A DNA stretch of 64,000 nucleotides from Candidatus Hydrogenedentota bacterium (GTDB lineage: Bacteria; Hydrogenedentota; Hydrogenedentia; Hydrogenedentales; SLHB01), in contig BTWA01000030.1 of the NCBI GenBank assembly GCA_045863295.1, forward strand, positions 1 to 64,000. Reading direction: 5' to 3'. Shown here piece by piece: positions 27,787 to 48,500 of this stretch (position 1 is its first letter; every line of letters starts with the position of its first letter). A model generated the notes under the pieces. The model was not told the origin of the DNA and made no database searches. It was given only the letters and a program-made list of their open reading frames with translations. A program made the translations under genes and the position numbers.

Positions 27787-28626
27787 ATGGCAGGCATTAA
27801 ACTTGATGGCAAAGCGCTGGCAGGGCAGATAGAGACAGAACTGCAGGGGCGCGTCGAAGCACTGAAAACACGGACCGGCATCACGCCCATTCTGGCCACA
27901 ATTCTTGTGGGGGATGACCCCGCTTCGGCCACCTACGTGAAAATGAAAGGGAACGCCTGCCGCCGGGTGGGCATGGAATCCCGCAAGGTGGAATTGCCCG
28001 CCTCCACGACGACGGAGGAGTTGCTTGCCGCCATTGCCGAATTGAACGCCGACCCTGGGGTGGCGGGCATCCTGTTGCAGCACCCCGTGCCCCACCAAAT
28101 TGACGAGCGGGCTTGTTTCGATGCCATCCAACTGGAAAAGGACGTGGACGGGGTAACGTGCCTCGGGTTCGGCCGGATGGCCATGGGCGAGGCGGCGTAC
28201 GGTTCCGCCACGCCGGCGGGCATTATGCGGCTGTTGAAGCATTACGCGATTGCGCTCTCCGGCAAGCGGGCCGTGGTGGTCGGGCGCAGTCCGATTCTGG
28301 GCAAGCCCATGGCGCTGATGCTCTTGAACGAGCATGCCACCGTGACGATCTGCCATTCCCGCACCAAAGACCTTGCGGACCTTGTGCGCCAAGCGGACAT
28401 CATCGTAGGCGCGGTGGGACGGCCGGAGTTCATCCAAGGAGACTGGATCGCGGATGGCGCGGTGGTGGTGGATGCCGGGTATCACCCCGGCAACGTGGGA
28501 GACATCCAGGTGTCGGCTATCGTGGATCGGTGTGCGGCGTACACACCGGTGCCCGGCGGAGTCGGACCAATGACTATATCGACGTTGATTGCGCAGACGG
28601 TGGAAGCGGCCGAAAAGGCATTCTGA
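27787..28626 (+). CDS. folD: Methylenetetrahydrofolate dehydrogenase/cyclohydrolase
   Basis: [39 protein letters not shown]. Confidence 0.96.
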
Positions 28627-28655
28627 CAGATTTCCAATCTCTGAAGGAGTTGACC

Positions 28656-29552
28656 ATGGAAACGAGGCATTTGGGAAAGACCGACCTCCGGGTCACGGTG
28701 CTGGGATTTGGCGGCGCGGAAATCGGCTTTGAACAGGCTGGTCCAAAGCAGGTCGAAGATCTGCTGAACCGCGCGCTGGATGAAGGCATGAACGTAATAG
28801 ACACGGCACGGATGTATCTCGCGAGCGAAGAGATGATCGGCAAGGCGGTGAGTCACCGCCGGGACGAATTCTATCTGTTCACCAAGTGCGGCCAGAACGG
28901 CCTGCCGGAATCCGAGATGTGGAAACCGGTCAATCTCATGAAGGATATCGAGGCCAGCCTGAAGTTGCTGAAAACCGATTATCTTGATCTGGTGCAGTTG
29001 CACAGTTGCAGCCTGGATGTGTTGAAGCATCTGGACGCCATCACCACCCTGCAAAAGGCAAAGGAAAAGGGCTACACCCGTTATATCGGCTACAGCGGCG
29101 AGGAAGAAGCCGCCAAGTTTGCGTGTGAAACCGAGGCGTTCGACACGCTGCAGACGAGCGTGAACATCGCGGACCAGCGGACGATCGATTACGTGTTGCC
29201 GGTCGCGAAACAGAAGCGCATGGGCGTAATTGCGAAACGGCCTATCGCCAACGCCGTGTGGAAGCACAAGACCAAACCGGACAACGCATATCATCACGAA
29301 TACTGGGACCGCATCCAAAAGCTGAACTACGAGTTCTTGAGGGGCGAGGTGAACGACGGAGTCTCCACCGCATTGCGTTTCACATTGACCGTGCCCGAGG
29401 TCGATACGGCCATTGTGGGGACCACGAAACCGGATCGGTGGTCCGAGAACGCGGAATACGCCTCGCGCGGAACGTTGACCGTCGAGGAGTTTGCCCGCAT
29501 CCGGCAGGTCTGGAAGCAAGTTGCCCCGCCGGATTGGCTCGGGCAGGTTTGA
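28656..29552 (+). CDS. Aldo/keto reductase
   Basis: LGFGG, IDTARMY, FTKCG, DYLDLVQLHS; SD AAGGAG. Confidence 0.92.
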   Translation: METRHLGKTDLRVTVLGFGGAEIGFEQAGPKQVEDLLNRALDEGMNVIDTARMYLASEEMIGKAVSHRRDEFYLFTKCGQNGLPESEMWKPVNLMKDIEASLKLLKTDYLDLVQLHSCSLDVLKHLDAITTLQKAKEKGYTRYIGYSGEEEAAKFACETEAFDTLQTSVNIADQRTIDYVLPVAKQKRMGVIAKRPIANAVWKHKTKPDNAYHHEYWDRIQKLNYEFLRGEVNDGVSTALRFTLTVPEVDTAIVGTTKPDRWSENAEYASRGTLTVEEFARIRQVWKQVAPPDWLGQV

Positions 29553-34037: not shown

Positions 34038-35417
34038 TCAGGGTGTGTGTTTCAGTACACCTGTCCCGTAGGAACCCACCGTGAAGGTAACTTTGCCCCC
34101 GGCAGCCACGAATGCCTTTCCACTGTCTTTGTCGGTGTACGTTCCGTCGGGCACGCCGCTCAACGTGCAATGGAGTGGGTCCTGCCATTCGTTAACCACG
34201 ATGAGCCACAATCCGTCGGCGGCCTGTTTGGGCAGCACGCGCACGCCACGATCGACTGAGCCCCACGTTTCCGCGTAATTGATTTCAAGGGCGATTGCGG
34301 CTTCCGGCGCGGACAGCACGGGCTGCAGGTCCGCCAATTCACGCAACACTTTCAAAACGTCTGCCCACAGTTGGGAATCCTTTTCGATGAATGCCGTGCC
34401 CCAATACAGAATGCCCCGCGCCCCATTCACAATGGTGTCGTAGGCCATGTAACGGGTCTCGGCCAGCGTTGGGCGGCGCTCGCGCTTTTTCGTGGCTTCG
34501 TCAGCGTTCTTGTCGAGATCAGCCCAACCGAATCCCTGGAGTACCATGAACACCGGCTTGCCGGGCGCGCTCTCCTGCATACGACGCGTGTACGCGCCGA
34601 CACTGGTGCGGCTTCGATCGCCCAGATCCGAATGGCCAGTCCCCCAATCCGGCATGGGATAAATGTCGCACCCCACTGCATCAGCCGCCTGCGCAAACAT
34701 GGCCAGTTGCGGTATGGAATTGCGGGGGGCGTGATTCATCCAGATTGGGTGTTTGGGGTCCAACTGCTTGAGCGCGGCGTAGCCCGCCTTCATGCCTTCA
34801 GCCATGACCACCATTCGATCGGCCGCGGTGTTGATTACATGTGCAGGCTGAGTCTCTGGCAGGCCGAGGGTCTTACTGAGCTCATCGGCCTTGGCTTCTC
34901 CCTCGACATACAATCCTTCCCGCATGGTGCGTTGCGCGTCGTCAAACTGGGCCTGCATGGCCGTCTTCTGGGCCTCATCGGTAATCGCGGCGATGGCTTC
35001 CCGCTGTTGCTTGGCCTGGTAGTTGAACCGCCACTCCTGCGCGGCGTACCAGACATTCCACAGGGCTTCGTCAGGCACTTCCCAAACCATCATTGCGGGA
35101 TGAGCCGCAAACTGGTCCGCCTTGGCCTTCAAGGCCGCCTCGCGGGCTTCCCGGTCAACGCTAAGGTCGAGGTCATACCCGGTATTCACCCAGCCTTTCA
35201 TGCCGAGTGCCTGCAGCGCATCAAGTTCTTCCGTGGAATGCACGTACATCAAGTTCACGCCAGCATCGGCGGCTTGCTTTAAAGCCGCTTTTTCCTTTGG
35301 ATACTCATACAGGCCAAGCACAAACGTCCGCTGGCCATCAACCACCAACATGCGATCTTCGGCGACTTGCACGTCCGCGGCGATGCCTGCCGCAAGCAGA
35401 AAAAGAATTGTTCCCAT
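34038..35417 (-). CDS. Secreted glycoside-hydrolase-like TIM-barrel protein
   Basis: Signal peptide, WEVPDEA, GCDIYP, FMVLQGF, GARGILYW; family not assignable. Confidence 0.6.
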   Translation of the reverse strand: MGTILFLLAAGIAADVQVAEDRMLVVDGQRTFVLGLYEYPKEKAALKQAADAGVNLMYVHSTEELDALQALGMKGWVNTGYDLDLSVDREAREAALKAKADQFAAHPAMMVWEVPDEALWNVWYAAQEWRFNYQAKQQREAIAAITDEAQKTAMQAQFDDAQRTMREGLYVEGEAKADELSKTLGLPETQPAHVINTAADRMVVMAEGMKAGYAALKQLDPKHPIWMNHAPRNSIPQLAMFAQAADAVGCDIYPMPDWGTGHSDLGDRSRTSVGAYTRRMQESAPGKPVFMVLQGFGWADLDKNADEATKKRERRPTLAETRYMAYDTIVNGARGILYWGTAFIEKDSQLWADVLKVLRELADLQPVLSAPEAAIALEINYAETWGSVDRGVRVLPKQAADGLWLIVVNEWQDPLHCTLSGVPDGTYTDKDSGKAFVAAGGKVTFTVGSYGTGVLKHTP

Positions 35418-35437: not shown

Positions 35438-36340
35438 CTATTGCGTTACGGCGGCCTGCGCCGGATGCTTCTTTAGAAACGCCAGAATGGCTTCTGCAAA
35501 CGCGGGATCCGCAATGGTCGAGATGTGGTCCCCGCCTTCGATATAGATCGATTCATGCCGGCCCATGACACCGTTCATCCGATCCACCCCGGCACGTAAC
35601 GGATCGTCAGCCCCCACGATGGAGAGCAGCGGCACGGAGTTCGCGCGCAATTCCGCCTCGGCTACCACGAGTCCGTCCAAGGCACGCATCACGTGCGCAA
35701 GCGCTTCGGTGTCGTTCGTGAGACTCAATGTGAAGTTGATTTGGCGAAGCACCCACCCCTCGGGGGCTTTGCCCGGCGGCGATATCGCCTCGAAAAGCGG
35801 CCCGAAATTGCCCGTGTAATCCAGCGCATTCGCAATGTCGTACCGTTCGGCCTCGCCACTTTCCGGGTCTTCCCATCCGGCGCCACCGGCTACCGCGGAG
35901 ATGACGCGATCCGGATGGAGGGTGACCAGTTTGAGCGTAATGAATGCGCCCATGGAATAGCCGACCACATGTGCCTTGGGAATTCCCAGGTGATCCATCA
36001 GGCGAATCACGTCCTCGCAAAAGGGAAGGCCGTATGCGGATTCCTCGTGAGGCTTCTCGCTCAATCCGTGGCCGCGATTGTCGATGGCGATGACTTTGTA
36101 TTCCTTCGCCAACTTTTGCAGCACGCCCGGCTTGCGCCAATTCAGGTCGGCGTTGGCGGCAAACCCGTGAATCAGGATGAGTGGTTCGCCTTCGCCTTCC
36201 ACGGTGAAGTGAATGCGTATGCCGTCCGAGTCGAAAAACTCGCCGGCAACCCGATCGGTGATGCTGTGATAGAGGTACGCCAGGCCGGCCAGGAAAGCAC
36301 AAGCGACGAGAACGACAACTATGCCGATCTTGCGTTTCAC
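35438..36340 (-). CDS. Membrane-anchored alpha/beta hydrolase
   Basis: LIHGF, DNRGHGLS, GYSMG nucleophile elbow, GADD, GDH; SD AAGGAGG before GTG. Confidence 0.9.
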   Translation of the reverse strand: MKRKIGIVVVLVACAFLAGLAYLYHSITDRVAGEFFDSDGIRIHFTVEGEGEPLILIHGFAANADLNWRKPGVLQKLAKEYKVIAIDNRGHGLSEKPHEESAYGLPFCEDVIRLMDHLGIPKAHVVGYSMGAFITLKLVTLHPDRVISAVAGGAGWEDPESGEAERYDIANALDYTGNFGPLFEAISPPGKAPEGWVLRQINFTLSLTNDTEALAHVMRALDGLVVAEAELRANSVPLLSIVGADDPLRAGVDRMNGVMGRHESIYIEGGDHISTIADPAFAEAILAFLKKHPAQAAVTQ

Positions 36341-36364: not shown

Positions 36365-38293
36365 CTATAAGTCGTCGACGGAAATCCCGTAGACGTGAAC
36401 ATCCTGGTATTCATCATGCACGAACAGGGCTTCGCGAAGCGTGCCTTCGCGTTTGAACCCCAGCCCCTCAAGGAACGATTGCAGTCCCTTTTCCGGCGCC
36501 GATGCGGGAATGGTGAGCCTGCGCACGGCCTGCTGCTTGGCGGCTTCATTGAGCAGTGTCCGGAAACCGCGGCGTACGTCTTCCGCGAGATAGTCCTGGT
36601 CGTCCCGCATGTAAATCCAACCCTGGGCGGCGCCGTGAAACCGTTCCGGCCGCATCTTAATCAGGCCGAAGGGTTTGCCATCGCGTTTGACCAGGATCAT
36701 TTCCTTGTCCATGCCATGGGGATGGAGCGCATCCATTTCACGGTCGTAGCGGGTGGTGATCATGATGCCGCGCTCGGTATAGAGGAAATAAGCCGCACTG
36801 TTCCAGTTCTCCCACTCCATCAGCATGTCCGCGTCGGCTTCTTCAATGGGCCTCATGCCCACCGACATGCGGAACGCGGCACGCACAAGCGTGAATAGCG
36901 AGGGCTTCTCGGTCCGCGTAAACAAGTGGTACATGCGCGTGAAATTCACGCCCTCGGCGGACAACAAATTGAAAGCGGACACCGCCGATTCCGCCCACGC
37001 CCGCTGTGCGTTGCACCAGGTCTCGTGCGGCAAACGGAAGGAACCGCTCAACGCCTGGTGCACGGCCGCCGTACCGCCTCCGCAGACGTGGCGCGCCCAG
37101 CACCGGCGGCAAACACCGGTAGTGACCGATCCGATTTCATCGAACCTCGAACGTGCCTCTTCGTCCAATCTGCCTTCGGCGAGTGATCCCACCTTGAACG
37201 CTTCCTGGCCCAAAAAGCGCCATGAAGGATACAACGCGCCATCGGCATCCACGGCCAGTTCATTGGTGCCGCTGGGATCGTTTCGTTTCAACGGCACGCC
37301 GTCGTAAATCCGGTAAAAGAACCCTGCTATGGGATCGACCCGGAAATAGTGATGTTTCAACAGGCGGTTCGCGTAATATACCGCGGATTCGCTGAGCGCC
37401 TTGCGCATGGCTTCCGGATCCAGCGACGGATCCGCGGCATAGGATCCGTCGAGATCCAATTCAATGTGCGTGAAACCAGCCTTGTCCAATGTCTCGACGA
37501 CGCCCGCGAAGTTCGGATGTCCCGGTTGAAGCACGATTCTACCGGTCACGCCTTCGCCGCCGGGCTGCACCGCTTTTGCCAGTTTCGCAAGAGTCCACGG
37601 TCCGGGTTGCGCGAACGATTCGAATGCATCCAGTTGCGATTCGGTCTGTTTTACTTCCAGCACAATCGAGATCGTATGTCCTTCCAACGCGTCACCGGAT
37701 TTGGCTAACGAGAGATTGAGTACTCGAATGGAAACCGTCGCGGTTTTTCCGGCGAGGCCCGCGGCTCTGATGGCCTGACGGGACAGGCTAATGATCAAAT
37801 CCGGGCTCTGCAACTGGCCTTCGGCAATCCATTCTAGTTGCAGCAGTTTTTGATCGGCCGCCCGGCCCAGCAAAAGATCTATTGCATCTCGGCCCAGCGT
37901 CCTCGCTTGAAATGGGGCTTCGGATGTCTTGGCGCCGAACCAACCTTTCTTCTTCGCGGGCGGGTCTTCCACCGTTTCCACGCCGGGAAGGCGAACCGAA
38001 AGCTTCTTCAGGCCCTTTTCGAGTTCGAATTCCTTCTGGAGATCCTCTTTCTTGGCCGGCGGAAGGATGGCACGTGTGGACCGGAGCCACTCGAGTTCGC
38101 CGATGACCTCTTCCAATTCAGTTGTATCGTGTTTTCCGGCAAGTTCTCGCACAATTCGGTTAAGCGGCGTGTGCGGATAATACTCCAGCACATCCCAGGA
38201 GATGTCGTCGCATTCGAAGCAAAAACAGGTTTCGGGATCGATGGCAAACCGGCGGCCGCCCTGGACAAAACGATGTATGAGCGCTTGCGTCAT
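36365..38293 (-). CDS. RRE + degenerate radical-SAM/SPASM + RimJ/RimL GNAT fusion
   Basis: N-terminus IHRF...FAIDPET...DDISWDVLEYY...ELEEVIGEL resembles the SCIFF-maturase RRE; LAVDADGALYPS and CRRCWARHVCGGGT...WC form a SPASM remnant; C-terminal GFKREGTLREALF...DVHVYG is GNAT-like; no CxxxCxxC. Confidence 0.85.
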   Translation of the reverse strand: MTQALIHRFVQGGRRFAIDPETCFCFECDDISWDVLEYYPHTPLNRIVRELAGKHDTTELEEVIGELEWLRSTRAILPPAKKEDLQKEFELEKGLKKLSVRLPGVETVEDPPAKKKGWFGAKTSEAPFQARTLGRDAIDLLLGRAADQKLLQLEWIAEGQLQSPDLIISLSRQAIRAAGLAGKTATVSIRVLNLSLAKSGDALEGHTISIVLEVKQTESQLDAFESFAQPGPWTLAKLAKAVQPGGEGVTGRIVLQPGHPNFAGVVETLDKAGFTHIELDLDGSYAADPSLDPEAMRKALSESAVYYANRLLKHHYFRVDPIAGFFYRIYDGVPLKRNDPSGTNELAVDADGALYPSWRFLGQEAFKVGSLAEGRLDEEARSRFDEIGSVTTGVCRRCWARHVCGGGTAAVHQALSGSFRLPHETWCNAQRAWAESAVSAFNLLSAEGVNFTRMYHLFTRTEKPSLFTLVRAAFRMSVGMRPIEEADADMLMEWENWNSAAYFLYTERGIMITTRYDREMDALHPHGMDKEMILVKRDGKPFGLIKMRPERFHGAAQGWIYMRDDQDYLAEDVRRGFRTLLNEAAKQQAVRRLTIPASAPEKGLQSFLEGLGFKREGTLREALFVHDEYQDVHVYGISVDDL

Positions 38294-39093
38294 CAGTAGG
38301 CCCCCAGCGTGCCTTTGCTGCGGCTGTGGTTCTCCATCAGCTTAAACAAGGTCAAGCCGATGGCAGTCCAGATGCCGCAGTTAATCATCAGAAAATAAAA
38401 CGAAGGATGCGTGAAAATCGCGGTTCCCTCTCCTTCCATGAGCACCAGCTTCAGACAAATGGCCGCGTCGGTAATCGGTGCGACGTGCGCAAGGGCCTGC
38501 AACACAATCGGCCAATTGTACATGTCTTCCGTGATGGTCAGGGCGAGCCCAATAAGAATAAGTCGCAATATGACGGCGATTTCCCCCGTCTGCTTGAAGA
38601 CCAGCACCAAACCTCCGCTCATGAATCCGAAACCGATCAGATTCAAATAGGTCAGCACAAGGAGTAGAACCGTCAAGGCGGGGCTCGCATGGATTTGGCT
38701 GTCAAAGGTGGCGGCTACCATGGCGATCATGATGGACCAGGTAACAATGCTCATGAAGGCGGCGACGCATGACCGTGCGAGAAAATTGGTGATGAGTCCA
38801 TGCGGGCTCATATACATCTGTTCCAGTTCCCCTGAACGCGCCATACCCTGCAATCCGGATGTGAACAGTCCGATAATGCCGAAGGCAAACATGCCGATGA
38901 CAAGTCCCAGCGCCTTGTCCGTGATGAACTGGGAATACTGATTCGGATCGACCGTGCCGCTCGACAACGCCATGATGATGCCCACAAGCATGCCGTATCC
39001 CATGATCATGCCCACCATGGTCTTGAACCAATACCGGCGCATGATGATGAACCCGCGGACCAACTCCGCTTTCATGACCAAAAAGAAACCCAT
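38293..39093 (-). CDS. ABC-2 type exporter permease
   Basis: Six hydrophobic segments, GELEQMYMSP; TGATG coupling to the next gene; start 39093 or 39105. Confidence 0.85.
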   Translation of the reverse strand: MGFFLVMKAELVRGFIIMRRYWFKTMVGMIMGYGMLVGIIMALSSGTVDPNQYSQFITDKALGLVIGMFAFGIIGLFTSGLQGMARSGELEQMYMSPHGLITNFLARSCVAAFMSIVTWSIMIAMVAATFDSQIHASPALTVLLLVLTYLNLIGFGFMSGGLVLVFKQTGEIAVILRLILIGLALTITEDMYNWPIVLQALAHVAPITDAAICLKLVLMEGEGTAIFTHPSFYFLMINCGIWTAIGLTLFKLMENHSRSKGTLGAY

Positions 39094-39142
39094 GTCTGCT
39101 CCCATTATTGAACGCGCGGGCGGGGCAGCCGCCGCTATCTTG

Positions 39143-40165
39143 TCAAGCCGGTCCGTCCGAGGTAAGCCGCAGGAACACATTTTCCAGCGTCTGTTGCCGC
39201 TCGCGAATGGAGCGTAATTCGACGCGATCGCCGCGTAGCGACTCAATCAGCCGGTACAAGGCCTCCGATCGATCGGAGGGATCGGACGGAACTTGCACGC
39301 TCAAGATCGGTCCATTTTCACTGGGCAGCGATTCAGCACCATGAATGCCCGGAATCGCGCGAAGGCTATCCAAGTCCGGCATGCGGTCAAGATGCAGTTC
39401 GTACGCCTGATCGGAAAAGACGTCCAGCAACTCCTCCGTCGGCTTGCACGCGATCAATTTGCCATTTTCTATGATCCCGATGCGATCGCAGAGTTCCTGA
39501 GCGACGCCCATGTCGTGCGTGGTGACCACTACACTCTTTCCTTGGGTCCGGGTCATCTCGATGATCTTGTCTTTGATGTTCCGGCTGCTTTGCACGTCCA
39601 AACCTGTGGTCGGCTCGTCCAGGAGGAGTACTTCGGGATCCGTGATCAGCGCAATGCATATGGCCAGCTTCTGCTTCTGGCCCCGGGACAGCTTCCGCAC
39701 CTCCGTGTTCATCTTGTCTTTCAGTCCGATGAACTCGAGCAGTTGTTCGGACCGCGCTCGCAATACGCGACCGCGCACGTCCCGCAAATTACCGAAATAG
39801 GCGAGGTTCTCCAGTGGCGTCAACGGCCAGATGCACGTTCGCGTGCCTTCCAAGACAACGCCCAGCTTACGGAGAACCTTGAGCCGGTTCGACTCCACGT
39901 AGAGGCCGCCGACATACACCTCGCCGCTGCATGGCTTCACCAAGCCCGATATCATCTTCACGGTCGTCGTTTTGCCCGCGCCGTTGCGGCCCAGCAAACC
40001 GAAAATTTCGCCCCTGCGCACGCCGAATGACACGTCGTTTACCGCATGGACCGTTTTCCTGCGGTACCATTTGCGCACACCGGAATCCTCGTCACGGGTG
40101 AGCACGTGGCGGGTATGGAACACTTTGTTGATACCACGCAATTCGACGGTGAATTCGGCGCTCAT
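39143..40165 (-). CDS. ABC exporter ATP-binding protein
   Basis: GRNGAGKTT, LSRGQKQK, LLLDEPT, TTHD, TLENVF tail. Confidence 0.95.
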   Translation of the reverse strand: MSAEFTVELRGINKVFHTRHVLTRDEDSGVRKWYRRKTVHAVNDVSFGVRRGEIFGLLGRNGAGKTTTVKMISGLVKPCSGEVYVGGLYVESNRLKVLRKLGVVLEGTRTCIWPLTPLENLAYFGNLRDVRGRVLRARSEQLLEFIGLKDKMNTEVRKLSRGQKQKLAICIALITDPEVLLLDEPTTGLDVQSSRNIKDKIIEMTRTQGKSVVVTTHDMGVAQELCDRIGIIENGKLIACKPTEELLDVFSDQAYELHLDRMPDLDSLRAIPGIHGAESLPSENGPILSVQVPSDPSDRSEALYRLIESLRGDRVELRSIRERQQTLENVFLRLTSDGPA

Positions 40166-40926
40166 TTTGCTTGCTGCCTCGAGGGCATGTACACCTTGTC
40201 CATTTCCCGGGCGGCCAGTTCTGGATCGCCCAACTCGTCGACTTTCATCAGATACTCCAAATAGGCGATCTCGATGTCGCGCATGGCGTGAATGACCATG
40301 ACAAGGACAAAGCTGTTGGTCACATGATACAAAACGCCCAGCAAGAGCGAGAATCCCACGAATTCCAGTGACACCATGAAGCTGTTCTCGAAAAAGTGCT
40401 TGTGCACGACCACAAAAAGTGCCGCGACCACTACAATACCCGTGAACGCCGCCGCGTTTGCGGACATGAACTGTTCGAGAAACACAACCGAAAACTTCTG
40501 CGCGGAAACGCGCCAGATGAGTTCTTCGGCCACGGCCACCCCAAGGAAACGCAACAACACGATTGGACTGTCAACGGTAAAATTCCACAAATCGCCGAAG
40601 TCGAAGAAGTGGCTCCAGGCATCCTTGATCGAATTGTGTGTGATCAAAAGCGACAGGCCGAACACCATGTGTCCAGCCAACAATCCCAATCCGATATAGA
40701 GTGGCGAGACCAGTTGCCGCGAGAATACGTCGAGACACAGGGCAAAGTAGACGGCCAGCCAAAAAATGGGCGCTTGTATGAAAACATGCACTCTACGTAT
40801 GCCACCGGTGGGTTGTTCCCCTTCCACGTACCGGTTACTGATCAGGGAAAAGACAACGTGCCCTCCGAGCAAGGCGAAAAAAGCGCCAACAGTCCAGCCC
40901 GGAATGGAGACCGCCTCGACGATCAT
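40162..40926 (-). CDS. CPBP (type II CAAX/Abi) intramembrane metalloprotease
   Basis: AEELIWR (EExxxR), FVVVH (FxxxH), HAMRD (HxxxD); ATGA overlaps at both ends. Confidence 0.9.
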   Translation of the reverse strand: MIVEAVSIPGWTVGAFFALLGGHVVFSLISNRYVEGEQPTGGIRRVHVFIQAPIFWLAVYFALCLDVFSRQLVSPLYIGLGLLAGHMVFGLSLLITHNSIKDAWSHFFDFGDLWNFTVDSPIVLLRFLGVAVAEELIWRVSAQKFSVVFLEQFMSANAAAFTGIVVVAALFVVVHKHFFENSFMVSLEFVGFSLLLGVLYHVTNSFVLVMVIHAMRDIEIAYLEYLMKVDELGDPELAAREMDKVYMPSRQQAK

Positions 40927-41555
40927 TCCGCCGCCTCCGGCTGCACCCTTCGGTCTTCGATGTCGGCAATCATCGTCTTCAGATCGATCCCTTTCAGCTT
41001 GCGATGGAAACTCTCACGCAAAACTTCAAATTCGGATCGAAGCAGACCATATCCGTACATCTCGAACATTTGTCCATCCCGGGCCACGTGATCGGGTAAC
41101 ACCAATTCGCGTTTTGCCCCGGAGAGTTCGAAGTTTCGCCACGAACGGCTATTGAAGCCGTAAATGTAGATGTTGATGCGATGCATGTTCAGAATGTGGA
41201 AACAGTATTCAAGAACACGGTAAAACGAGATCGTTGCCAGCATACCGTTCCGCTTGGACTCGATAATGTACGAGTCGATATTGCAAGAACGGTTGCGCCA
41301 ACTGATATTGACTACACTGAAGAGTCCAAACGGCCCGTACTTGTTGGAATCCGCCACGAAATAGATCGTAGGGGGCATGGAATGCGGCGCGGAGCGGCCA
41401 AGCATGCCGACGATTTGTTCGCGCACTTGGCGCGGCGAGCGCGCGGGATCCCCGTACAGAAAGCGTTGAAATGCGGGGTCCTGCATCCACGAGACCACCG
41501 TTTCCAAATCGTCGCGGTCCGCGCGACGTATAAACACACTAGACTTAAGCGCCAT
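40923..41555 (-). CDS. RimJ/RimL-type GNAT
   Basis: IRRADRDDLE, ISWRNR, YCFHILNMHRI, FNSRS, GAKRE, MYGYGLLRSEF. Confidence 0.85.
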   Translation of the reverse strand: MALKSSVFIRRADRDDLETVVSWMQDPAFQRFLYGDPARSPRQVREQIVGMLGRSAPHSMPPTIYFVADSNKYGPFGLFSVVNISWRNRSCNIDSYIIESKRNGMLATISFYRVLEYCFHILNMHRINIYIYGFNSRSWRNFELSGAKRELVLPDHVARDGQMFEMYGYGLLRSEFEVLRESFHRKLKGIDLKTMIADIEDRRVQPEAAE

Positions 41556-41557
41556 GA

Positions 41558-42103
41558 TCAGGCCTCCGCCGCGGCGGGTGCGGCAAGGCGATCGTATTCC
41601 GGCCGCAACATGCCGAATCCGAGCAAATCCGCGGCCTTGCCGTTTTGCAGCAGATGTCCCCGGTACGTCACTTCTCGCTTAGCACCCATTCTAGCGAGCG
41701 CGGAAAGAGCGGTTGTGTCGGAGGCGGCCACACGCGTGGACACTCGATGAAGATTGAGTTCGTCGAAGCAATACCGGAGTAGACCCAGCCAACCATCAAA
41801 CACAATATCTTCCGTGCGATGCGCGGGAATCACGTAGAGACTGGAGGCGCATTGACGATTGCGCCACTGCATTTCGTAGATGGCGGCGAGGCCCACCGGC
41901 TGGTCTTTGTCGTCAGTCAGCATAAAAAATCCGATGCCGGCATTCTGCGAATTCAGGGCACCACCCAGCAGTGCTATCGCCTGCGCACCGTGCTGACGCC
42001 AGGACCGCCGGCTGTCACCAAAGACAAACTCGCGGAACACGGGGTCCTCGGCCCATTCGAGGACATAGTCGAGGTCGGCCCGCTCAAGACGTCGCAAGCG
42101 CAC
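41558..42103 (-). CDS. RimJ/RimL-type GNAT
   Basis: LRRLERADL, QWRNR, YCFDELNLHRV, GAKRE, FGMLRPEY. Confidence 0.85.
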   Translation of the reverse strand: MRLRRLERADLDYVLEWAEDPVFREFVFGDSRRSWRQHGAQAIALLGGALNSQNAGIGFFMLTDDKDQPVGLAAIYEMQWRNRQCASSLYVIPAHRTEDIVFDGWLGLLRYCFDELNLHRVSTRVAASDTTALSALARMGAKREVTYRGHLLQNGKAADLLGFGMLRPEYDRLAAPAAAEA

Positions 42104-42656
42104 TGTATCGTTCCTTGTAGGCTTCCAAATGTTGGCAGCGGGATCGGGGCAGCGAATGCGATTCGAGATCGTAGTAGCGGCCGTGAGTATAGATCATGTC
42201 CCGTTGAATACCATCGCACACGAAACCGTGACGCACGAGAAACGCGCGGTACAATTCCTCTGTGGTCAGGCAACTGGTTTGAATCTTGTTGAGTTTCTTC
42301 TCGACAAACGTGCCGTATGCGATGAAACCAAATACTTCGTCGGCGAGGGGCTGGCCGTAATCGGACTCATCGGCCATGGCGAGCATCATTTCCGCGAACG
42401 CGGATTCCATCTTGGCGCTACGCATCACGAAACAACCCCGAATATCCCCTTGCAGATTCTCAACGACAAAGAAGACGCCGGAAAGAAAGTCTTTCCGGCC
42501 AAGCATTTCGCGCAATTCGTCCAATGTGGGGATGTAGATTTCCCGCGAAGGACCGATCAGGAATGAACGAGGCGATGACATATCGTACAACTGCCACAGG
42601 GCGTACGCGTCATCGGGTTCGCTCGAACGGATTATGCCGTGTTCCAATGCAATCAT
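42084..42656 (-). CDS. RimJ/RimL-type GNAT
   Basis: IRSSEPDD, FVEKKLNKI, GFVCDGIQRD, GRYYDL. Confidence 0.8.
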   Translation of the reverse strand: MIALEHGIIRSSEPDDAYALWQLYDMSSPRSFLIGPSREIYIPTLDELREMLGRKDFLSGVFFVVENLQGDIRGCFVMRSAKMESAFAEMMLAMADESDYGQPLADEVFGFIAYGTFVEKKLNKIQTSCLTTEELYRAFLVRHGFVCDGIQRDMIYTHGRYYDLESHSLPRSRCQHLEAYKERYSALATS

Positions 42657-42832: not shown

Positions 42833-42862
42833 AAAAAAAAGCGGGGTTGAAGCCAACCCCGC
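42833..42862 (-). terminator. Strong intrinsic terminator between the peptide genes and the maturation genes
   Basis: Minus strand GCGGGGTTG-GCTT-CAACCCCGC-TTTTTTTT (perfect 9-bp stem, T8). Confidence 0.92.
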
Positions 42863-42894: not shown

Positions 42895-43107
42895 CTAAAA
42901 GAACAAACGCTCTTCGTCGTCTCCACCCGTGTCACCGCCGCCGTCTCCCCCGTCATCCGGGGGATCGACGATCCCGCCGCCACCAATGATAAAGTTCTTC
43001 TTGCCGAAAACAACGTCGTAGTAGCCATTCAGGACGGCATTTACAAAATCGATGGCGGCCGTGGCTTCCAGGATCTTCGTTTTCGTTAGTTTGCGCACGT
43101 GCTTCAT
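42895..43107 (-). CDS. Putative precursor peptide C (70 aa)
   Basis: MKHVRKLTKTKILEA-TAAIDFVNAVLNGYYDVVFGKKN...Gly/Asp tail; SD GGAG; colinear with the neighbouring peptide. Confidence 0.8.
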   Translation of the reverse strand: MKHVRKLTKTKILEATAAIDFVNAVLNGYYDVVFGKKNFIIGGGGIVDPPDDGGDGGGDTGGDDEERLFF

Positions 43108-43156: not shown

Positions 43157-43294
43157 CTATCCCTTCAGGCCACCGATGGAGTTCTTCGTGGAAAACAGGA
43201 AGTTCAACCATGCGTTCCAGAACGTATTCAAAAAGTCATCATACGAAGCGGCCTGACGTATCCGCGCTGCGGAAATGTTTCGCACATGTCGCAT
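43157..43294 (-). CDS. Putative precursor peptide B (45 aa, not in ORF track)
   Basis: Manual translation MRHVRNISAARIRQAASYDDFLNTFWNAWLNFLFSTKNSIGGLKG*; SD GGAGGA 6 nt before ATG; 16/45 ungapped identities to peptide C. Confidence 0.85.
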   Translation of the reverse strand: MRHVRNISAARIRQAASYDDFLNTFWNAWLNFLFSTKNSIGGLKG

Positions 43295-43392
43295 GAACAC
43301 TCCTCCATGTAGTTCGTGAAATGGCGCTGACTACGGCAGCGTCATCACGGGTATCAGCGGTAATTCATAACCCCAACACGGCCGTATCGGCG

Positions 43393-43614
43393 TCAGGTAT
43401 TCTCTTCCGGATTCTTCTCTTCGCTATACGCCGTGAGCGCGGCCAAGAACCCCTGCAAGCCAGTCACCGAGGCAGTGAAGATGGCGCTAAACGCAGTGAC
43501 GAATACGGTTACAACGTCAAAACCCAGCGTCAATATGGAGATTAGTACCTCCAGATTGGTCTGATCGGCCTCGGCACGTAACGGTTGCTTGGAAATCATG
43601 GTCAGGTGTTTCAA
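43393..43614 (-). CDS. Putative precursor peptide A (73 aa)
   Basis: TTG start after SD GGGAGA; MKHLTMISKQPLRAEA leader, long hydrophobic Ser/Thr-rich core, EEKN near the C-terminus. Confidence 0.78.
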   Translation of the reverse strand: MKHLTMISKQPLRAEADQTNLEVLISILTLGFDVVTVFVTAFSAIFTASVTGLQGFLAALTAYSEEKNPEENT

Positions 43615-43823: not shown

Positions 43824-43852
43824 AGTCTAGCACCAAACCATCCCGTTATCAA
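43824..43852 (-). promoter_or_regulatory. Candidate sigma70 promoter of the peptide genes
   Basis: TTGATA-17 nt-TAGACT with extended -10 TG. Confidence 0.55.
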
Positions 43853-44025: not shown

Positions 44026-45531
44026 TTAACGGACACCGGCAACTTCCACACTGTCGTACCCAAAGGATTGGGCGCTCGGAAGGTCCGAATGGCCCATCAG
44101 CCGAATATCAATGGCACGTGCGGCCTCACGGCCTTCGTGAATGGCCCAGACCACCAGCGACTGTCCGCGGCGCGCGTCGCCTGCCGCAAAGACATTGGGC
44201 TTGCTTGTGCTGTACTGGCCGTATTCGGCTTTCACATTTCCACGTGGATCTAATTCCAGCCCAAGTTGTTTGGGCAAAACATGTTCGGGATGAACAAAGC
44301 CCATGGCCAAGAGCACCAGTTCACACTCAATCTCGAACTCGCTGCCAGCCACTTCCTTCATTTGCATCCGGCCCGAATCGTCTTTCACCCATTCGACACG
44401 GACCGCCTGGATAGCGCGCAATTTCCCGTTGCCGTCTCCCAGGAACTCCTTAGTAAGCACGCTGAAATCGCGGTCGCCCCCTTCTTCGTGGCTCGAAGAC
44501 GTACGATAAATAACGGGCCACAGGGGCCAAGGGGTTGACGGATTCTCGCCCTCGGGCGGACGAGGCAACAACTCCAACGACCACACGTGCTTCGCCCCCT
44601 GCCGCAGACTGGTGCCGAGGCAGTCGGAACCCGTGTCGCCGCCACCGAGAATTACCACGGTTTTGCCATTGGCCAAAATCGCGTTTTCTACGACTTCCTT
44701 TCCCGAAACCCTACGGTTTTGCTGGGTCAGAAAATCCATGGCGAAGTGTACGCCGTCCAGTTCACGTCCGGGGATCGGGAGATCCCGGGGTTGGGTCGAC
44801 CCTGTGGTCAACAGAATGGCGTCAAATTCTTTCTCCAACTCAGCGGCGGTGACGTCTTTGCCCACTTCCACGCCGCACCGGAAAATGACGCCTTCAGCGG
44901 CCATCTGCTTCAGCCGCCGGCGCACGACGTCCTTGTTCAGCTTGAAATCCGGAATACCGTACATCAGCAAGCCACCAGCCTCATCCGCGCGCTCGAAAAG
45001 GGTGACTGTATGGCCAGCCCGGTTCAGTTGTTGCGCGGCGGCCAACCCAGCCGGACCGGACCCAATTACCGCGACTTTCTTTCCGGTCCGGACTTCCGGC
45101 AACTCGGGATTGATCCAGCCTTCCGCGAAGCCGCGGTCGGCGATGGAACGTTCGTTCAGTTTGATGGTGACGGGCGGATCCGTGATTCCCAGCACGCACG
45201 ATGCCTCGCACGGCGCTGGGCACACTCGACCAGTAAACTCCGGGAAGTTATTGGTGGAAAGCAACGTATCCAAGGCGCGTTTCCAATCCAAATCCTTCAC
45301 ACCGTCGTTGAAATCGGGAATGATGTTCCCCAGGGGGCAGCCGGACATGCAAAACGGGATGCCGCAATTCATGCAGCGGTACCCCTGCTCCTTCATTTTC
45401 GAATCATCGAAATCCTGGAGGAACTCGTCCCAATGCTTTGTGCGCTCTTCTACAGGCCGGTACGACGGCGTTTCCCGCTTGTATACCATGAACCCTTTTT
45501 CTTTCGAGGGTCCATTGTTATTTGACGGCAT
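44026..45531 (-). CDS. gltD: Glutamate synthase small subunit
   Basis: RCMNCGIPFC, NNFPEFTGRVCPAPCE, IGSGPAG, GQSLVVWAI. Confidence 0.96.
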   Translation of the reverse strand: MPSNNNGPSKEKGFMVYKRETPSYRPVEERTKHWDEFLQDFDDSKMKEQGYRCMNCGIPFCMSGCPLGNIIPDFNDGVKDLDWKRALDTLLSTNNFPEFTGRVCPAPCEASCVLGITDPPVTIKLNERSIADRGFAEGWINPELPEVRTGKKVAVIGSGPAGLAAAQQLNRAGHTVTLFERADEAGGLLMYGIPDFKLNKDVVRRRLKQMAAEGVIFRCGVEVGKDVTAAELEKEFDAILLTTGSTQPRDLPIPGRELDGVHFAMDFLTQQNRRVSGKEVVENAILANGKTVVILGGGDTGSDCLGTSLRQGAKHVWSLELLPRPPEGENPSTPWPLWPVIYRTSSSHEEGGDRDFSVLTKEFLGDGNGKLRAIQAVRVEWVKDDSGRMQMKEVAGSEFEIECELVLLAMGFVHPEHVLPKQLGLELDPRGNVKAEYGQYSTSKPNVFAAGDARRGQSLVVWAIHEGREAARAIDIRLMGHSDLPSAQSFGYDSVEVAGVR

Positions 45532-48500
45532 GCTGAACCTCCTGAGCGACGGCCTTGCCATTGTCTCCACCGGCTTGCCGTTCCATTTCACGCAACACCC
45601 GCGCGTAATCGCGCGGCATCACCCGGACAAAGTGCTGAGACTCAGAAGTCCAGTTGTCGAGGATCCGCTTCGCCACGGTGCTGCCGGTGTACTGAACATG
45701 CCGATCCAGCATGTACTTCAAATCGTTCAGACTCTTTTCGTTCATCGGCTTCAAGTCAACAGACTCTTGATTGCACAGAATGGGAAAGGAACCGTTTGGG
45801 TCGTACACGAACGCAATGCCACCGCTCATGCCTGCCGCGAAGTTCCGCCCGGTCGGCCCAAGAATGGCCGCACGGCCGCCAGTCATGTACTCGCACCCAT
45901 GATCGCCCACGCCTTCGACAACCGCCCAGGCGCCGCTGTTGCGCACGCAGAAGCGCTCGCCGCCAATGCCGCGAAAATACGCTTCTCCGCCCGTGGCGCC
46001 GTATAGGGCCACATTGCCTACCACGATGTTCTGCTCGGGTGTCATGGGGCACTCGGCCGGCGGTGTCACAATAATCTTGCCGCCGGAAAGTCCCTTGCCG
46101 CAGTAGTCGTTGGCTTCGCCGGTCACGTTCAAAGTCACGCCTTTGATCGAAAACGCGCCAAAGCTTTGGCCCGCCTGACCTGTGCAATCGATCCACACGG
46201 TGTCTTCAGGCAAAGTGCCGGTTTCGAGACCGACCTTGTGAACGCGCGTCAATTCACTGGAAAGCATCGTTCCGACGGTACGGTTGATGTTCTTTATTTC
46301 CGTCGAAAACCGTACCTTTTCAACTTGGTCGAAAGATGCAGCTGGTTTGAGCGCCGCGCTTGCACGCACAAGAAGGTCGTTGTCCAACGCCTTCTCCAGT
46401 CCGTGATCCTGGGTCTGGCTGTGATAAAGCGTCTCCCCTTTCCACGGCGTCTCCACATGAAGCAGGCGGGTAAGGTCGAGCTTCTTTGCCTTCCAGTGAT
46501 CCGGCAGGGGGTCGTATTCGAGCCGGTCGGTGCGGCCGATCATTTCATTAACGGTGCGGAAACCGAGTTCCGCCATGATGGCCCGCACTTCCTCGGCAAT
46601 GAAGAAACACAAATTCACAACGTACTCGGGCTTGCCCGCGAATTTCTTGCGCAGTTCCGCATCTTGTGTCGCAATGCCGACCGGGCAGGTGTTCAAATGA
46701 CACTTGCGCATCATGATACACCCCGTCGCAATGAGCGGCAATGTCGCCATGCCCACTTCGTCGGCGCCCAGCAGGAACGCAATGGCCACATCGCGGCCGG
46801 TCTTAATCTGGCCGTCCGTTTGTACGCGAATTCGGCTTCGCAAATTGTTGGACACCAGAACCTGGTGGGTCTCGGAGAGGCCCAACTCCCACGGCAGACC
46901 CGCATGCTTGATCGAACTCAGGGGCGACGCGCCGGTTCCACCATTGTCGCCGCTGACAAGTACCAAATCGGACTTGCCCTTGGCCACGCCCGCGGCGACC
47001 GTACCCACACCCACTTCCGACACGAGCTTCACCGAGATGTTCGCGTACTTGTTCGCGTTCTTCAGATCATGAATGAGTTGCGCCAAGTCTTCGATCGAAT
47101 AGATGTCGTGATGCGGCGGAGGCGAAATCAATTCCACGCCGGGCGTGGAATAGCGAATGCGCGCAATCTCCGGGAACACTTTGTGCCCCGGCAATTCGCC
47201 GCCTTCACCGGGCTTCGCACCCTGCGCCATTTTGATTTGGAGTTCGTCCGCATTGACAAGGTATTCGTTGGTCACGCCAAAGCGGCCGGAGGCCACTTGC
47301 TTAATCGCGCTGCGACGCAGATCGCCATTGCCATCCGCCACGAATCGTTTTGGATCTTCGCCGCCTTCGCCGGTGTTGCTTCGGCCGCCGATACGGTTCA
47401 TCGCAATCGCCAGCGTTTCGTGCGCTTCCTTGCTGATCGAACCAAACGACATGGCCCCCGTGCAGAACCGCTTCACGATTTCTTTCGCGGATTCCACTTC
47501 CTCGATAGGAACCGGGGTGCCTTTCTTGAACTTCAACAACGAACGCAGCGCGGCCAACGACCGGTTGCGATCATTGATGAGGGCGCTGAACTCCCGGAAT
47601 TTCTCCTGGCTATTCGCGCGCACGGCATGTTGCACCCGCGACACGGTGTCGGGGTTGTACATGTGAAATTCGCCGCGCCGGCGCCAGCGGTATACACCGC
47701 CCGGATCCAACTCGCGGGGCCGTGCATGCGCCTTCGGATACGCAATGGAATGACGCATGAGCGTCTCGCGGCACACGTCCTCCATCTCGATTCCGCCAAT
47801 GCGCGAAGCTGTACCCGCAAAGCATCGGTCAATCAGGATTGGGCCGAGGCCCAGGGCTTCGAAGATTTGCGCGCTTCGGTAGCTGTGCTGCGTCGAGATG
47901 CCGATCTTTGACATCGTCTTCAGCATGCCCGCTTCAACCGCGTGAATGAAATTCGCGACGGCTTGCCCCGGTTCCTTTTCCACCAGGATTTCCCGTTGGA
48001 GTTGGTCCTCGATCGTGGCGAAGGCGAGGTATGGATTCACCGCGCCCGCGCCGTATCCCGTCAAGAGGCAGAAGTGCATAACTTCGCGGGGCTCGCCGGA
48101 TTCCACCACGATACCGCAATGGCTGCGAAGCCCTTTGCGCACCAGGTGATGGTGCACACCGCCCGTCGCGAGCAAGCTCGGAATCGCGGCATTCTTTTCA
48201 CCCACACCGCGATCGGACAGCAGAAGGAGCGTGTACCCCGCTTGGGTAGCGGCTTCCGCCTCATTGCAAATGCGATCGAGGTGTCTCTCAAGCGCGCCAA
48301 AGCCCTCTTCCGCAGGAAACAGCGTCGAAATGACTTTCGTCTTCAGACCTGGCTTGTCCAAGTGCTTGATATAGTCGAGTTGCTCGTTCGTGATGATGGG
48401 CGACTTCAAATGAAGCTGTTGGCAGTCTTCCGGAGTCGCATCGAGCAGATTCTTCTCGCGGCCGATATCGGTTTCCAGCGACATGACGATTTCTTCGCGG

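Follow-up and report, generated by a model that had tools for sequence, protein, structure and literature searches.

What the second auxiliary cluster does in radical-SAM/SPASM maturases, a mainstay of ribosomal-peptide discovery, is still a matter of debate. The closest described relatives of the protein examined here are the SCIFF ranthipeptide maturases CteB and Tte1186 (ScfB) (PDB 5WGG/5WHY; TIGR03974, NF040492), with which it shares an architecture of RRE, (beta/alpha)6 barrel and SPASM domain. The Fig. 2 legend of PMC10177961 gives the CteB ligands as C104/C108/C111 for the radical-SAM (RS) cluster, C344/C362/C413 for AuxI and C400/C403/C409/C432 for AuxII, and section 8 of PMC8326336 places the CteB leader between RRE helix alpha-3 and strand beta-3. 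A precedent for GNAT maturases of ribosomal peptides is found in the selidamides, where KspN, PhaN and NpuN attach acyl groups to the side chains of Lys or ornithine in leader-bearing peptides (PMC8784127). In the parts of that report drawn on here, the GNAT accompanies NHLP- or Nif11-type precursors, lanthionine synthetases and arginases, with no radical-SAM-derived domain mentioned there.

The window, a 64,000-nucleotide stretch of a Candidatus Hydrogenedentota genome, includes an intact ORF on the minus strand (P0001, 36365..38293) that encodes a full-length CteB homologue of 642 aa, referred to below as the scaffold. It consists of an RRE, a radical-SAM barrel devoid of its cluster motif, a SPASM domain whose only cysteines are those of AuxII, and, at the C-terminus, a GNAT domain. 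CteB (5wgg_A) ranks first in a phmmer search of the PDB with the scaffold (E 8.4e-22), matching two stretches, aa 3-168 and aa 340-435, and is also the top PDB match of a profile built from 35 family members, where the alignment forms one unbroken stretch from 4 to 435 (E 4e-40). The AF2 model of the scaffold (pLDDT 81.8) matches 5wgg_A in Foldseek (E 3e-16) and superimposes on CteB over 387 residues with Z 26.9 and rmsd 3.6, values that refer to a predicted model and not to a solved structure. Other fold matches are ChlB (Z 19.6) and anSME (Z 19.5). Pfam returned no Radical_SAM, SPASM or PqqD match at E up to 0.01, and the assignment of homology relies exclusively on NCBIfam, on searches of the PDB by sequence and by profile, and on the fold. 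Scores against the NCBIfam models for SCIFF maturases lie far below their cut-offs (71.2 bits against 425 for TIGR03974; 76 against 855). Matches to the models for the thioether-forming enzymes PapB and QhpD, from which the scaffold differs by the same losses as from CteB, cover aa 134-420 (E 1.1e-13; 51 against 340 bits) and aa 134-453 (E 7.9e-13; 48 against 453 bits), respectively. The original prediction had described the first ~445 aa as CteB-like and the 642-aa frame as intact, without giving the strand, and both statements are borne out. It had also been staked on the middle region modelling as a radical-SAM barrel, and a CteB-like barrel was indeed obtained.

That barrel (aa 95-335; 37289..38011, minus strand) is recognized from the alignments and the model as a degenerate partial TIM barrel that carries neither CxxxCxxC nor GGE. 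The scaffold has seven cysteines in all, at positions 23, 25, 28, 395, 398, 404 and 427, and none between residues 29 and 394. In the phmmer alignment, the loop that bears CxxxCxxC in CteB falls opposite a Cys-free, variable stretch (aa 106-125; 37919..37978, minus strand), and the GGEP of CteB is aligned to AEGQ (aa 157-160), both as first read from the sequence. The GGE position varies within the family, and intact relatives read FFGGEPL. HMMER puts P111, K115 and W118 at the positions of the CteB cluster cysteines and the MAFFT placement differs, so that residue-level mapping in this loop depends on the aligner, but the absence of Cys from 29 to 394 holds either way. The loop has a pLDDT under 50 in the model, and aa 81-130 are the least conserved part of the protein, with 2 of 50 columns at least 95% conserved; over the barrel region as a whole the figure is only 20 of 205. 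CxxxCxxC is present in all 17 out-of-family SPASM relatives examined, but not in a single one of 120 homologues, nor in two divergent orthologues. Its retention in close homologues had been named as grounds for abandoning the original prediction, and this ground does not apply. Both sequence hallmarks of a radical-SAM enzyme, the three-Cys cluster motif and the GGE motif, are therefore missing from the scaffold, and the fold of its partial (beta/alpha)6 TIM barrel is predicted by the model. As part of the overall interpretation set out below, radical-SAM chemistry has probably been lost.

The SPASM domain (aa 336-458; 36920..37288, minus strand) was delimited from its TIGR04085 score (39.5 bits, cut-off 27; 43.9 bits in the genome search), the ligand map and conservation. 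When the CteB ligands are mapped with the offset between the 5wgg chain index and native numbering (+3), the AuxI positions are occupied by D339, S357 and T408, and all four AuxII positions by cysteines, C395, C398, C404 and C427, exactly as had been proposed. Cysteines thus occur only at the AuxII positions of what is elsewhere a seven-Cys, two-cluster domain. The AuxII cysteines are invariant in the 118 aligned homologues (118/118), as is D339 (118/118), and 32 of the 123 columns of the domain are at least 95% conserved. AuxII is also kept in 31 of 32 rows of the tree, deep-branching members included, and its retention in nearly every member examined argues for a role that is structural, or at least independent of radical chemistry.

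Across the family, the operon is composed of 1-5 small peptide genes, two or three GNAT genes and genes for a CPBP protease, an ABC exporter and the scaffold. In the window, the minus strand carries GNAT1 (42084..42656), GNAT2 (41558..42103) and GNAT3 (40923..41555), all identified from Pfam and synteny, a CPBP/CAAX (Rce1-like) intramembrane protease homologue (40162..40926; PF02517, E 8.6e-09, and hydrophobic segments), a DrrA-like ABC transporter ATPase (39143..40165; PF00005, E 4.7e-29; TIGR01188, E 2.7e-70) and a membrane protein with about six hydrophobic segments (38293..39246), which hydropathy and synteny mark as the probable permease partner of the ATPase. No usable Pfam match was obtained for this 317-aa ORF. 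Translation probably starts near aa 48-52 of the ORF as listed, and the TGA stop overlaps the scaffold ATG by one base. The order GNAT1-GNAT3-CPBP-ABC is found in 32 of the 32 loci that reach GNAT1, with the permease next in 31 of these 32 and the scaffold following wherever the contig extends far enough. GNAT2 is an extra paralogue; only the window and its nearest relatives (loci L001, L004 and L053) have it as a gene of its own. The operon is retained in the two most divergent genomes fetched. An alpha/beta hydrolase and a 459-aa ORF downstream, the latter without a usable Pfam match, have no counterparts in related loci and were therefore left out of the system.

Three small peptides are encoded on the minus strand of the window. 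Peptide A (43393..43614; 73 aa, TTG start) begins MKHLTMIS, has a hydrophobic core and has orthologues in L001, L004 and L053. Peptide B (43157..43300), which begins MRHVRNIS and is 45 aa long if the ATG at 43294 is used, belongs to a conserved family, type B. Peptide C (42895..43107; 70 aa, beginning MKHVRKLT) is a type-B paralogue whose tail is rich in Gly and Asp. A consensus match upstream of peptide A (43824..43852, minus strand) resembles a promoter, though such sites are fewer than in shuffled sequence. Between the last peptide gene and GNAT1 lies a terminator-like hairpin (42841..42862, minus strand; 9 pairs, 7 of them G-C, then T8), identified by consensus scan only.

Upstream regions of the related loci contain 63 sense-strand ORFs with the leader motif, in 28 of 32 regions, and no antisense ones; the motif was derived from the loci in which it was counted, so this control speaks for strand specificity and not for independence. 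The remaining 4 of 32 regions have no motif peptide. M1, H3 and A15 are invariant in an alignment of 25 type-B peptides. Genuine SCIFF peptides beside intact maturases start MKHIK or MRHIK, and an MKHI-type leader start is common to the CteB substrates and the peptides of the scaffold operon. The operon peptides differ from SCIFF peptides in lacking the six-Cys core and any match to the SCIFF HMM: eight peptides scanned against NCBIfam with E allowed up to 10 matched no SCIFF, Nif11 or NHLP family, and the one match obtained was at chance level. A direct-repeat search of the peptide region found nothing. Leader-bearing peptides with variable cores are thus encoded beside an RRE protein and tailoring and export genes, the arrangement of a RiPP cluster, and the leaders presupposed by the original prediction do occur in the operon. 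In a complex prediction for the full-length scaffold with peptide B the scores were 0.02, 0.56 and 0.31, with a mark of 0.32. No description of this family was found in the literature covered, which excludes subscription journals; papers on RiPP acyltransferases did come up, but none of them, going by title and abstract, deals with this architecture. The small, putatively modified peptides of the operon probably form a class undescribed so far.

In the reading considered probable, the protein is a leader-docking scaffold without radical chemistry, from which peptides would be presented to GNAT-type domains. Its ancestor would have been a SCIFF-type RRE-radical-SAM-SPASM maturase that abandoned radical chemistry. 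The N-terminal RRE would dock the MKHI-type leader of the peptides whose genes stand first in the operon, and the barrel and SPASM domain may have been kept as a peptide cradle held by one four-Cys site, the former AuxII, containing most likely a [4Fe-4S] cluster and otherwise Zn. The docked peptide would then be passed to GNAT folds, namely the C-terminal domain of the scaffold and the stand-alone GNATs. These are expected to N-acylate it, the likeliest sites being the Lys 5-8 residues from the C-terminus or an amino terminus. The CPBP protease and ABC exporter could process and then export the product. Homology, fold, cysteine pattern and its conservation, operon and peptide family are direct results of the comparisons above, and leader binding, metal content, the identity of the catalytic GNAT and of the acyl donor, the residue that is modified, and export are what we infer from them.

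The C-terminal domain (aa 476-642; 36368..36868, minus strand) was assigned to the GNAT superfamily, RimL/SpeG type, from Pfam, PDB sequence and fold. PF13420 matches the scaffold at 481-633 with 22 bits, below its cut-off of 24.3, and reaches 39.7 bits on family member P0159; a precomputed GNAT annotation is present in 18 of the 120 listed homologues. The modelled fold matches GNATs with Z 16-17 over aa 476-642, close to the span of about aa 475-642 given originally, is nearest to the polyamine acetyltransferases SpeG, and also matches the lasso-peptide acetyltransferase 9iy3 (Z 15.7). Both the fused and the stand-alone GNATs find their best matches, in sequence and in fold, among RimL/RimJ/SpeG/MccE-type acetyltransferases, and GNAT1 is distantly similar to the fused domain, with weak matches in L013 and L034 to the C-terminal part of the scaffold. 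Unlike the selidamide GNATs as described in PMC8784127, the domain is fused to an apparently dead radical-SAM scaffold.

The fused domain also differs from the RimL/RimJ/SpeG/MccE type in that the glycine-rich CoA loop is replaced. GNAT motif A has a pyrophosphate loop of the form Q/R-x-x-G-x-G/A. In HMMER sequence alignments, QDYLAEDV of the scaffold lies opposite YQGKGIM of 3igr, and the family consensus DYASEE lies opposite FQGQGI of RimL. The loop Gly is absent from the fused GNAT, GNAT1 and GNAT2, where RimL has QGQG and 3igr QGKG, and judged from these sequences acyl-CoA use by the fused domain appears doubtful. The proposal that substrate is fed to the fused GNAT is accordingly not fully supported, with two or three stand-alone GNATs as alternatives. 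The whole scaffold, GNAT included, might then be a non-catalytic adaptor, leaving the stand-alone enzymes, chiefly GNAT3, as the only real transferases. The family-wide loss of the loop Gly (DYAS in the consensus opposite FQGQ of RimL) suits this reading, and so does GNAT3, the best conserved of the stand-alone GNATs in the operon (49-78% identity across loci), which keeps an Arg and a Gly in its loop. It would also fit that the best-conserved GNAT columns of the scaffold fall in the N-terminal half of the domain, the half that forms the acceptor site in GNATs. However, 30 of the 166 GNAT columns reach 95% conservation or more, a level expected of an active domain, and since GNATs bind pyrophosphate through main-chain amides, a missing Gly is no proof of lost CoA binding. 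A purely adaptor role is considered unlikely, though it deserves to be kept in mind.

The RRE-like leader-docking domain (aa 1-80; 38054..38293, minus strand) was assigned through homology to CteB, with three strands followed by three helices in the model. It is the part of the scaffold most similar to CteB and also the best conserved, with 28 of its 80 columns reaching 95% conservation or more. Stand-alone or fused PqqD-like RREs have the same three-strand, three-helix form; the scaffold differs from them in having a conserved CxCxxC on the third strand and in being attached to an enzyme body that appears decommissioned and not active. This motif, CFCFEC (aa 23-28; 38210..38227, minus strand), holds a triad, C23/C25/C28, that is present in 117 of 118 aligned homologues and missing from CteB, intact relatives and deep-branching members. 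Compared with CteB, the scaffold has therefore lost the RS motif, GGE and the AuxI ligands, kept the four AuxII cysteines, and gained the RRE triad and the C-terminal GNAT. The suggestion of one structural metal site in the original prediction was incomplete, as the triad constitutes a second cysteine set.

The triad invites the alternative that the protein is still an iron-sulfur enzyme, in which clusters at AuxII and C23/C25/C28 carry out redox or non-canonical radical chemistry on peptides. Its presence in 117/118 homologues and its gain on the same long, fully supported branch of the tree as the loss of AuxI are compatible with this, and 17 of the 63 leader-motif peptides contain Cys. Against it, the universal type-B peptide has none, GGE is gone, the loop that formerly bore the cluster is disordered and variable in sequence, and deep-branching members do without the triad. 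In the model, moreover, the triad sits on strand 24-28 within the RRE sheet and not at the barrel top. Continued iron-sulfur chemistry is considered improbable. Under the favoured docking-scaffold reading, the triad could have another part. In PapB and Tte1186 the three-Cys AuxI site binds substrate via an open iron, and in the CteB crystal structure AuxI contacts a substrate Cys. The triad, which lies on the RRE strand that would contact the leader, might carry a metal ion or a site-differentiated cluster with a free position for the docked peptide to fill, for example through His3, which is near-universal in the leader, a speculation that seems rather unlikely. If true, it would make the triad a means of metal-bridged, possibly redox-gated leader recognition, the pathway a phylum-wide, housekeeping, Cys-free and acyl-based counterpart of clostridial SCIFF, and the family a natural experiment showing AuxII to be structural.

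A further reading would have the scaffold sequester or sense peptides, in immunity or regulation, or acetylate an unrelated small molecule, with its N-terminal part a structural remnant. CPBP proteins and ABC-2-type exporters often serve in immunity or export, and the likeness of the GNAT fold to SpeG might hint at a small-molecule substrate. A mere remnant would hardly be the best-conserved domain of the protein, as the RRE is, and the scaffold gene is coupled in translation to those of the exporter and always downstream of the peptide genes in the loci compared, making this reading very improbable.

The scaffold gene is single-copy in the source genome. Within Hydrogenedentota it occurs in 60 of 66 genera and 123 of 135 genomes; among the high-quality genomes the count is 83 of 86. 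Strain-specific decay into a nascent pseudogene, for which only the missing cysteines speak, is ruled out for practical purposes by the intact frame, the same cysteine pattern in all 120 homologues, the presence of the gene in 123/135 genomes and the domain-specific distribution of invariant columns. The selection on the cysteine pattern proposed originally is supported by the same presence across the phylum, together with CxxxCxxC in 0/120 and AuxII in 118/118. A clean, cluster-by-cluster loss, also proposed, describes the main clade but not the whole family: deep-branching members lack the RS cluster and keep all seven SPASM cysteines, AuxI included, indicating that loss was staged. The family thus provides a natural deletion series, from intact relatives with three clusters, through deep-branching members minus the RS cluster, to a main clade also minus AuxI, and the role of AuxII can be tested on a protein with no other SPASM-domain cluster.

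The operon is vertically conserved phylum-wide beside gltD, which is unusual for a natural-product cluster and may point to a housekeeping role. Nearly all genomes of this uncultured phylum thereby carry a marker for small, putatively modified peptides of a probably undescribed class. The scaffold itself would represent the reuse of a whole enzyme body as a leader-docking platform for a different chemistry, that of GNATs. Such reuse may recur, as a related RS-less protein, P0200, which has a weak PqqD Pfam match, is fused to a peptidase S24 domain.

The scaffold gene (36365..38293, minus strand) is a single intact ORF predicting a 642 aa protein with seven cysteines in total, at residues 23, 25, 28, 395, 398, 404 and 427. 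The best match among PDB sequences is the SCIFF maturase CteB (5wgg_A; phmmer, E 8.4e-22), in two stretches, aa 3-168, which takes in the RRE plus the beginning of the barrel, and aa 340-435, within SPASM; a 35-member family profile matches CteB in one stretch (positions 4-435 to chain 5-445, E 4e-40). NCBIfam models for a ScfB-related orphan maturase (E 2.2e-21), the Nif11-peptide maturase (E 3.3e-20), the SCIFF maturase (E 7.5e-20), PapB (aa 134-420, E 1.1e-13) and QhpD (aa 134-453, E 7.9e-13) also match, all five far below their equivalog cut-offs, and the SPASM domain model is above its cut-off (39.5 vs 27 bits). The CteB ligands are C104/C108/C111 for the radical-SAM (RS) cluster and C344/C362/C413 and C400/C403/C409/C432 for the SPASM auxiliary sites AuxI and AuxII (Fig. 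2 legend, PMC10177961). When these are transferred through the phmmer alignment, using the +3 offset of the 5wgg_A chain index from native CteB numbering, the AuxI positions are D339, S357 and T408, the AuxII positions are C395, C398, C404 and C427, and the GGEP motif of CteB is aligned with AEGQ (aa 157-160), exactly as mapped in the original prediction. Mapping of the former RS cluster loop depends on the aligner (P111/K115/W118 with HMMER, different with MAFFT), and neither places a cysteine in it.

An AlphaFold2 model from a 35-sequence alignment (mean pLDDT 81.8, pTM 0.67) has only two long low-confidence stretches, the former cluster loop (aa 106-125) and the linker to the GNAT domain (aa 460-475). 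CteB is the top Foldseek match (E 3e-16, target TM 0.68, 475 columns), and VIA-align of model residues 3..445 with CteB gives Z 26.9 and rmsd 3.6 over 387 aligned residues, ahead of ChlB (Z 19.6), anSME (Z 19.5) and TigE (Z 18.3). The middle region thus models as a radical-SAM barrel, as had been proposed from the sequence. Residues 476-642 match many GNAT acetyltransferases at Z 15-17, including SpeG, RimL, MccE and a lasso-peptide acetyltransferase.

On the minus strand, the operon runs from three small ORFs at its head (43393-43614, 43157-43300 and 42895-43107) through a strong terminator-like hairpin (42862-42841, minus strand, from a consensus scan only) to three stand-alone GNAT genes (GNAT1, 42084..42656; GNAT2, 41558..42103; GNAT3, 40923..41555), followed by genes for a CPBP/CAAX protease homologue, a DrrA-like ABC ATPase and a membrane protein (permease) with about six hydrophobic segments, and finally the scaffold gene, the ATG of which shares one base with the permease stop TGA. 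In tblastn searches of the fetched loci, the order GNAT1-GNAT3-CPBP-ABC was found in all 32 that reach GNAT1. The permease is next in 31, no match being found in locus L006 at a filter of at least 50% coverage, and the scaffold gene then follows in every locus whose contig extends far enough. Among the fetched loci, only L001, L004 and L053 have GNAT2 as a gene of its own, and this operon is retained in the two fetched genomes that diverge most. The peptide genes are immediately preceded by gltD, which encodes the glutamate synthase small subunit (44026-45591, minus strand; TIGR01317, E 7.7e-215) and is adjoined by a 1571-aa ORF (45518-50233, minus strand). Of the 32 loci, 16 have a gltD match on the upstream side, suggesting, through synteny with a gene of core metabolism, that the operon is vertically inherited. 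Downstream of the scaffold gene on the same strand, an alpha/beta hydrolase gene (35438-36340) and a 459-aa ORF with no family match (34038-35417) have no counterparts in related loci by tblastn and are therefore probably outside the system. Two further genes appear unrelated to it, one for a PLD-like protein with two PLDc-type domains (25917-27626, minus strand) and one for an aldo/keto reductase extended by ∼190 aa at its N-terminus (28113-29552, plus strand).

The loci have one to five small ORFs upstream of GNAT1 (six by eye in one locus), which start M-K/R-H-I/L/V-K/R-x-I/L/V-S/T. A regular expression for this start, derived from the same loci that it counts, found 63 sense ORFs in 28 of the 32 upstream regions and none on the antisense strand, a control for strand specificity only. 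The ORF nearest GNAT1 belongs to a well-conserved ∼39-aa family, type B (consensus MKHIxxISxxRADAFxDFxNAxWRAWxDFxxxKKNExxx), with M1, H3 and A15 invariant in 25 aligned sequences. The last Lys is 5-8 residues from the C-terminus in 47 of the 63 peptides, and 17 contain Cys. In NCBIfam the peptides have no matching model, not even that for SCIFF. Genuine Cys-rich SCIFF-type peptides directly upstream of intact out-of-family maturases begin MKHIK, MRHIK or (M..)KHI/V, and the leader type consequently appears to have been inherited from a SCIFF-like ancestor, with a changed core. Several types other than type B occur upstream of GNAT1 (L021, L022, L041 and other loci), one with two conserved Cys (C..ITSDYQALLCF) and another with PEVKLTF...NK(D/N)P, and some loci have short, leaderless-looking copies (MSKIPRQAGEFTTGQKLTLAAG...). 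The number of peptide types differs between genomes; the GNAT count stays at two or three.

The scaffold protein is most likely a decommissioned maturase retained as a docking platform. Its RRE would dock the MKHI leader, and the rest of the former maturase, barrel plus SPASM, held stable by what was the AuxII site with its putative metal, would cradle the peptide core. An amine, the predicted modified site, would be acylated from a presumed acyl donor by GNAT-fold domains, the fused GNAT and/or GNAT3 and GNAT1, and the CPBP protease and ABC exporter would process and then export the product. The main rival to catalysis by the fused GNAT is that this is a pseudo-domain and that the stand-alone GNATs carry out the chemistry. 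GNATs have a canonical glycine-containing CoA loop motif, and in sequence alignments of the fused domain FQGQGI of RimL is opposite the family consensus DYASEE, and YQGKGIM of 3igr is opposite QDYLAEDV of the scaffold. GNAT1 and GNAT2 likewise are without the loop glycines; in the loop of GNAT3 a conserved Arg and a Gly remain. As the loop binds CoA via main-chain amides, the missing glycines are a caution, not proof of inactivity. As a docking platform, the protein would function much as an RRE scaffold with a RiPP acyltransferase attached. Selidamides are ribosomal peptides with GNAT maturases (PMC8784127) but, unlike the scaffold, these have no radical-SAM-derived body mentioned in the parts of that article drawn on here. 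No published description of the family was found in searches of open-access literature.

Of 8000 candidates scored in a protein search with the scaffold, 270 matched at E ≤ 0.001. The 120 that were listed (the scaffold itself also being listed) share 48-64% identity with it, have lengths of 574-662 aa (nearly all >610), come mostly from Hydrogenedentota MAGs and are named, if at all, 'SPASM domain-containing protein' or 'GNAT family N-acetyltransferase'. CxxxCxxC occurs nowhere in these 120, whereas each of the 17 SPASM relatives retrieved from outside the family, in other phyla, contains it. In 118 aligned homologues of at least 600 aa, the four AuxII cysteines (C395, C398, C404, C427) and D339 are each conserved in 118/118; position 357 is S in 88 and C in 23, and position 408 is T in 35, N in 20, S in 19 and C in 14. 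Columns at least 95% conserved number 28/80 in the RRE, 32/123 in SPASM, 30/166 in GNAT and 20/205 in the barrel, with 2/50 over aa 81-130, which includes the former cluster loop.

A further triad, C23/C25/C28 (CFCFEC), is present in 117 of the 118 and sits on the third RRE strand of the model (E24-28), opposite Gly, Val and Val of CteB in the phmmer alignment. From topology, this strand would be CteB β3; the CteB leader peptide lies between helix α3 and strand β3 of the RRE (PMC8326336, section 8). Residue 32 (38198-38200, minus strand) is Cys for Ser in 15/118 orthologues, giving CxCxxCxxxC, and Cys32 may serve certain lineages as a fourth ligand. A minority view would have AuxII and the new triad still supporting Fe-S chemistry. 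Compared with its closest known proteins, CteB/ScfB, the family has the fold and the SPASM domain but is without the RS motif, the GGE motif, the full seven SPASM cysteines and equivalog-level scores. Strain decay of a radical-SAM gene is excluded, since the pattern is family-wide, close homologues also lacking the motif in keeping with the original prediction, and the gene is in 123/135 Hydrogenedentota genomes.

The whole-genome search of the phylum found the gene in 83/86 genomes with completeness of at least 90% and contamination of at most 5%, and in 60/66 genera, with family f7 having it in just 5/14 genomes. In the source genome (6.3 Mb, 96% complete) the gene is single-copy, and one further SPASM protein is encoded. 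In G049-G058, ten genome rows of family f8 (genus g53), the match is split (∼5-109 and ∼245-637) within one ∼620-aa open frame, indicating divergence beyond alignment in the first barrel half. One or two stop codons are flagged within the match in six of these rows; the G056 copy (L082, 9353-11194) is intact.

A 52-row tree was computed from the sequences minus their GNAT domain (IQ-TREE in quick mode, with SH-aLRT as the only support measure). Many of its inner branches are unresolved; it groups all 32 GNAT-fused proteins together (support 100). Of these, P0155, P0159 and P0163, which have AuxI intact, branch apart from the other 29, a clade (support 100, branch length 1.05) that has D (28) or E (1) at the first AuxI position and CCC (27) or TCC (2) at the triad positions. 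AuxII is CCCC in 31/32; P0135 has S at the last position, possibly an alignment slip. G001, the orthologue from the phylum search that is furthest from the scaffold (27% identity), lacks both the RS motif and the triad, with S, V and L in place of the latter, but all seven of its SPASM cysteines remain. In G056 the triad positions read T/C/C and the AuxI positions D/G/H. The tree and these divergent patterns indicate a staged loss, RS cluster before AuxI. With an approximate root (the 18 outgroup rows are not on one side of any branch), it would follow that RS cluster loss and GNAT fusion came first, then AuxI loss and triad gain on one branch, a co-occurrence that is one event and not a statistical association.

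A representative library search (4191 matches at E ≤ 0.001, 81 at ≤ 1e-30) included two RS-less proteins outside the family. P0200, a 656-aa RRE-barrel-SPASM protein, has neither CxxxCxxC nor a GGE motif, retains all seven SPASM cysteines and ends in a fused Peptidase_S24 domain (E 5e-07), apparently a separate instance of a radical-dead maturase body bearing another enzyme. P0246 (484 aa, unfused) also lacks CxxxCxxC, keeps GGEP and an intact AuxII, and has D/S/S at the AuxI positions, the first being the same Cys-to-Asp change as in the main clade. Both are among intact maturases in the tree, P0246 on a long branch with its placement unsure, and decommissioned maturase bodies may thus be a recurring theme.
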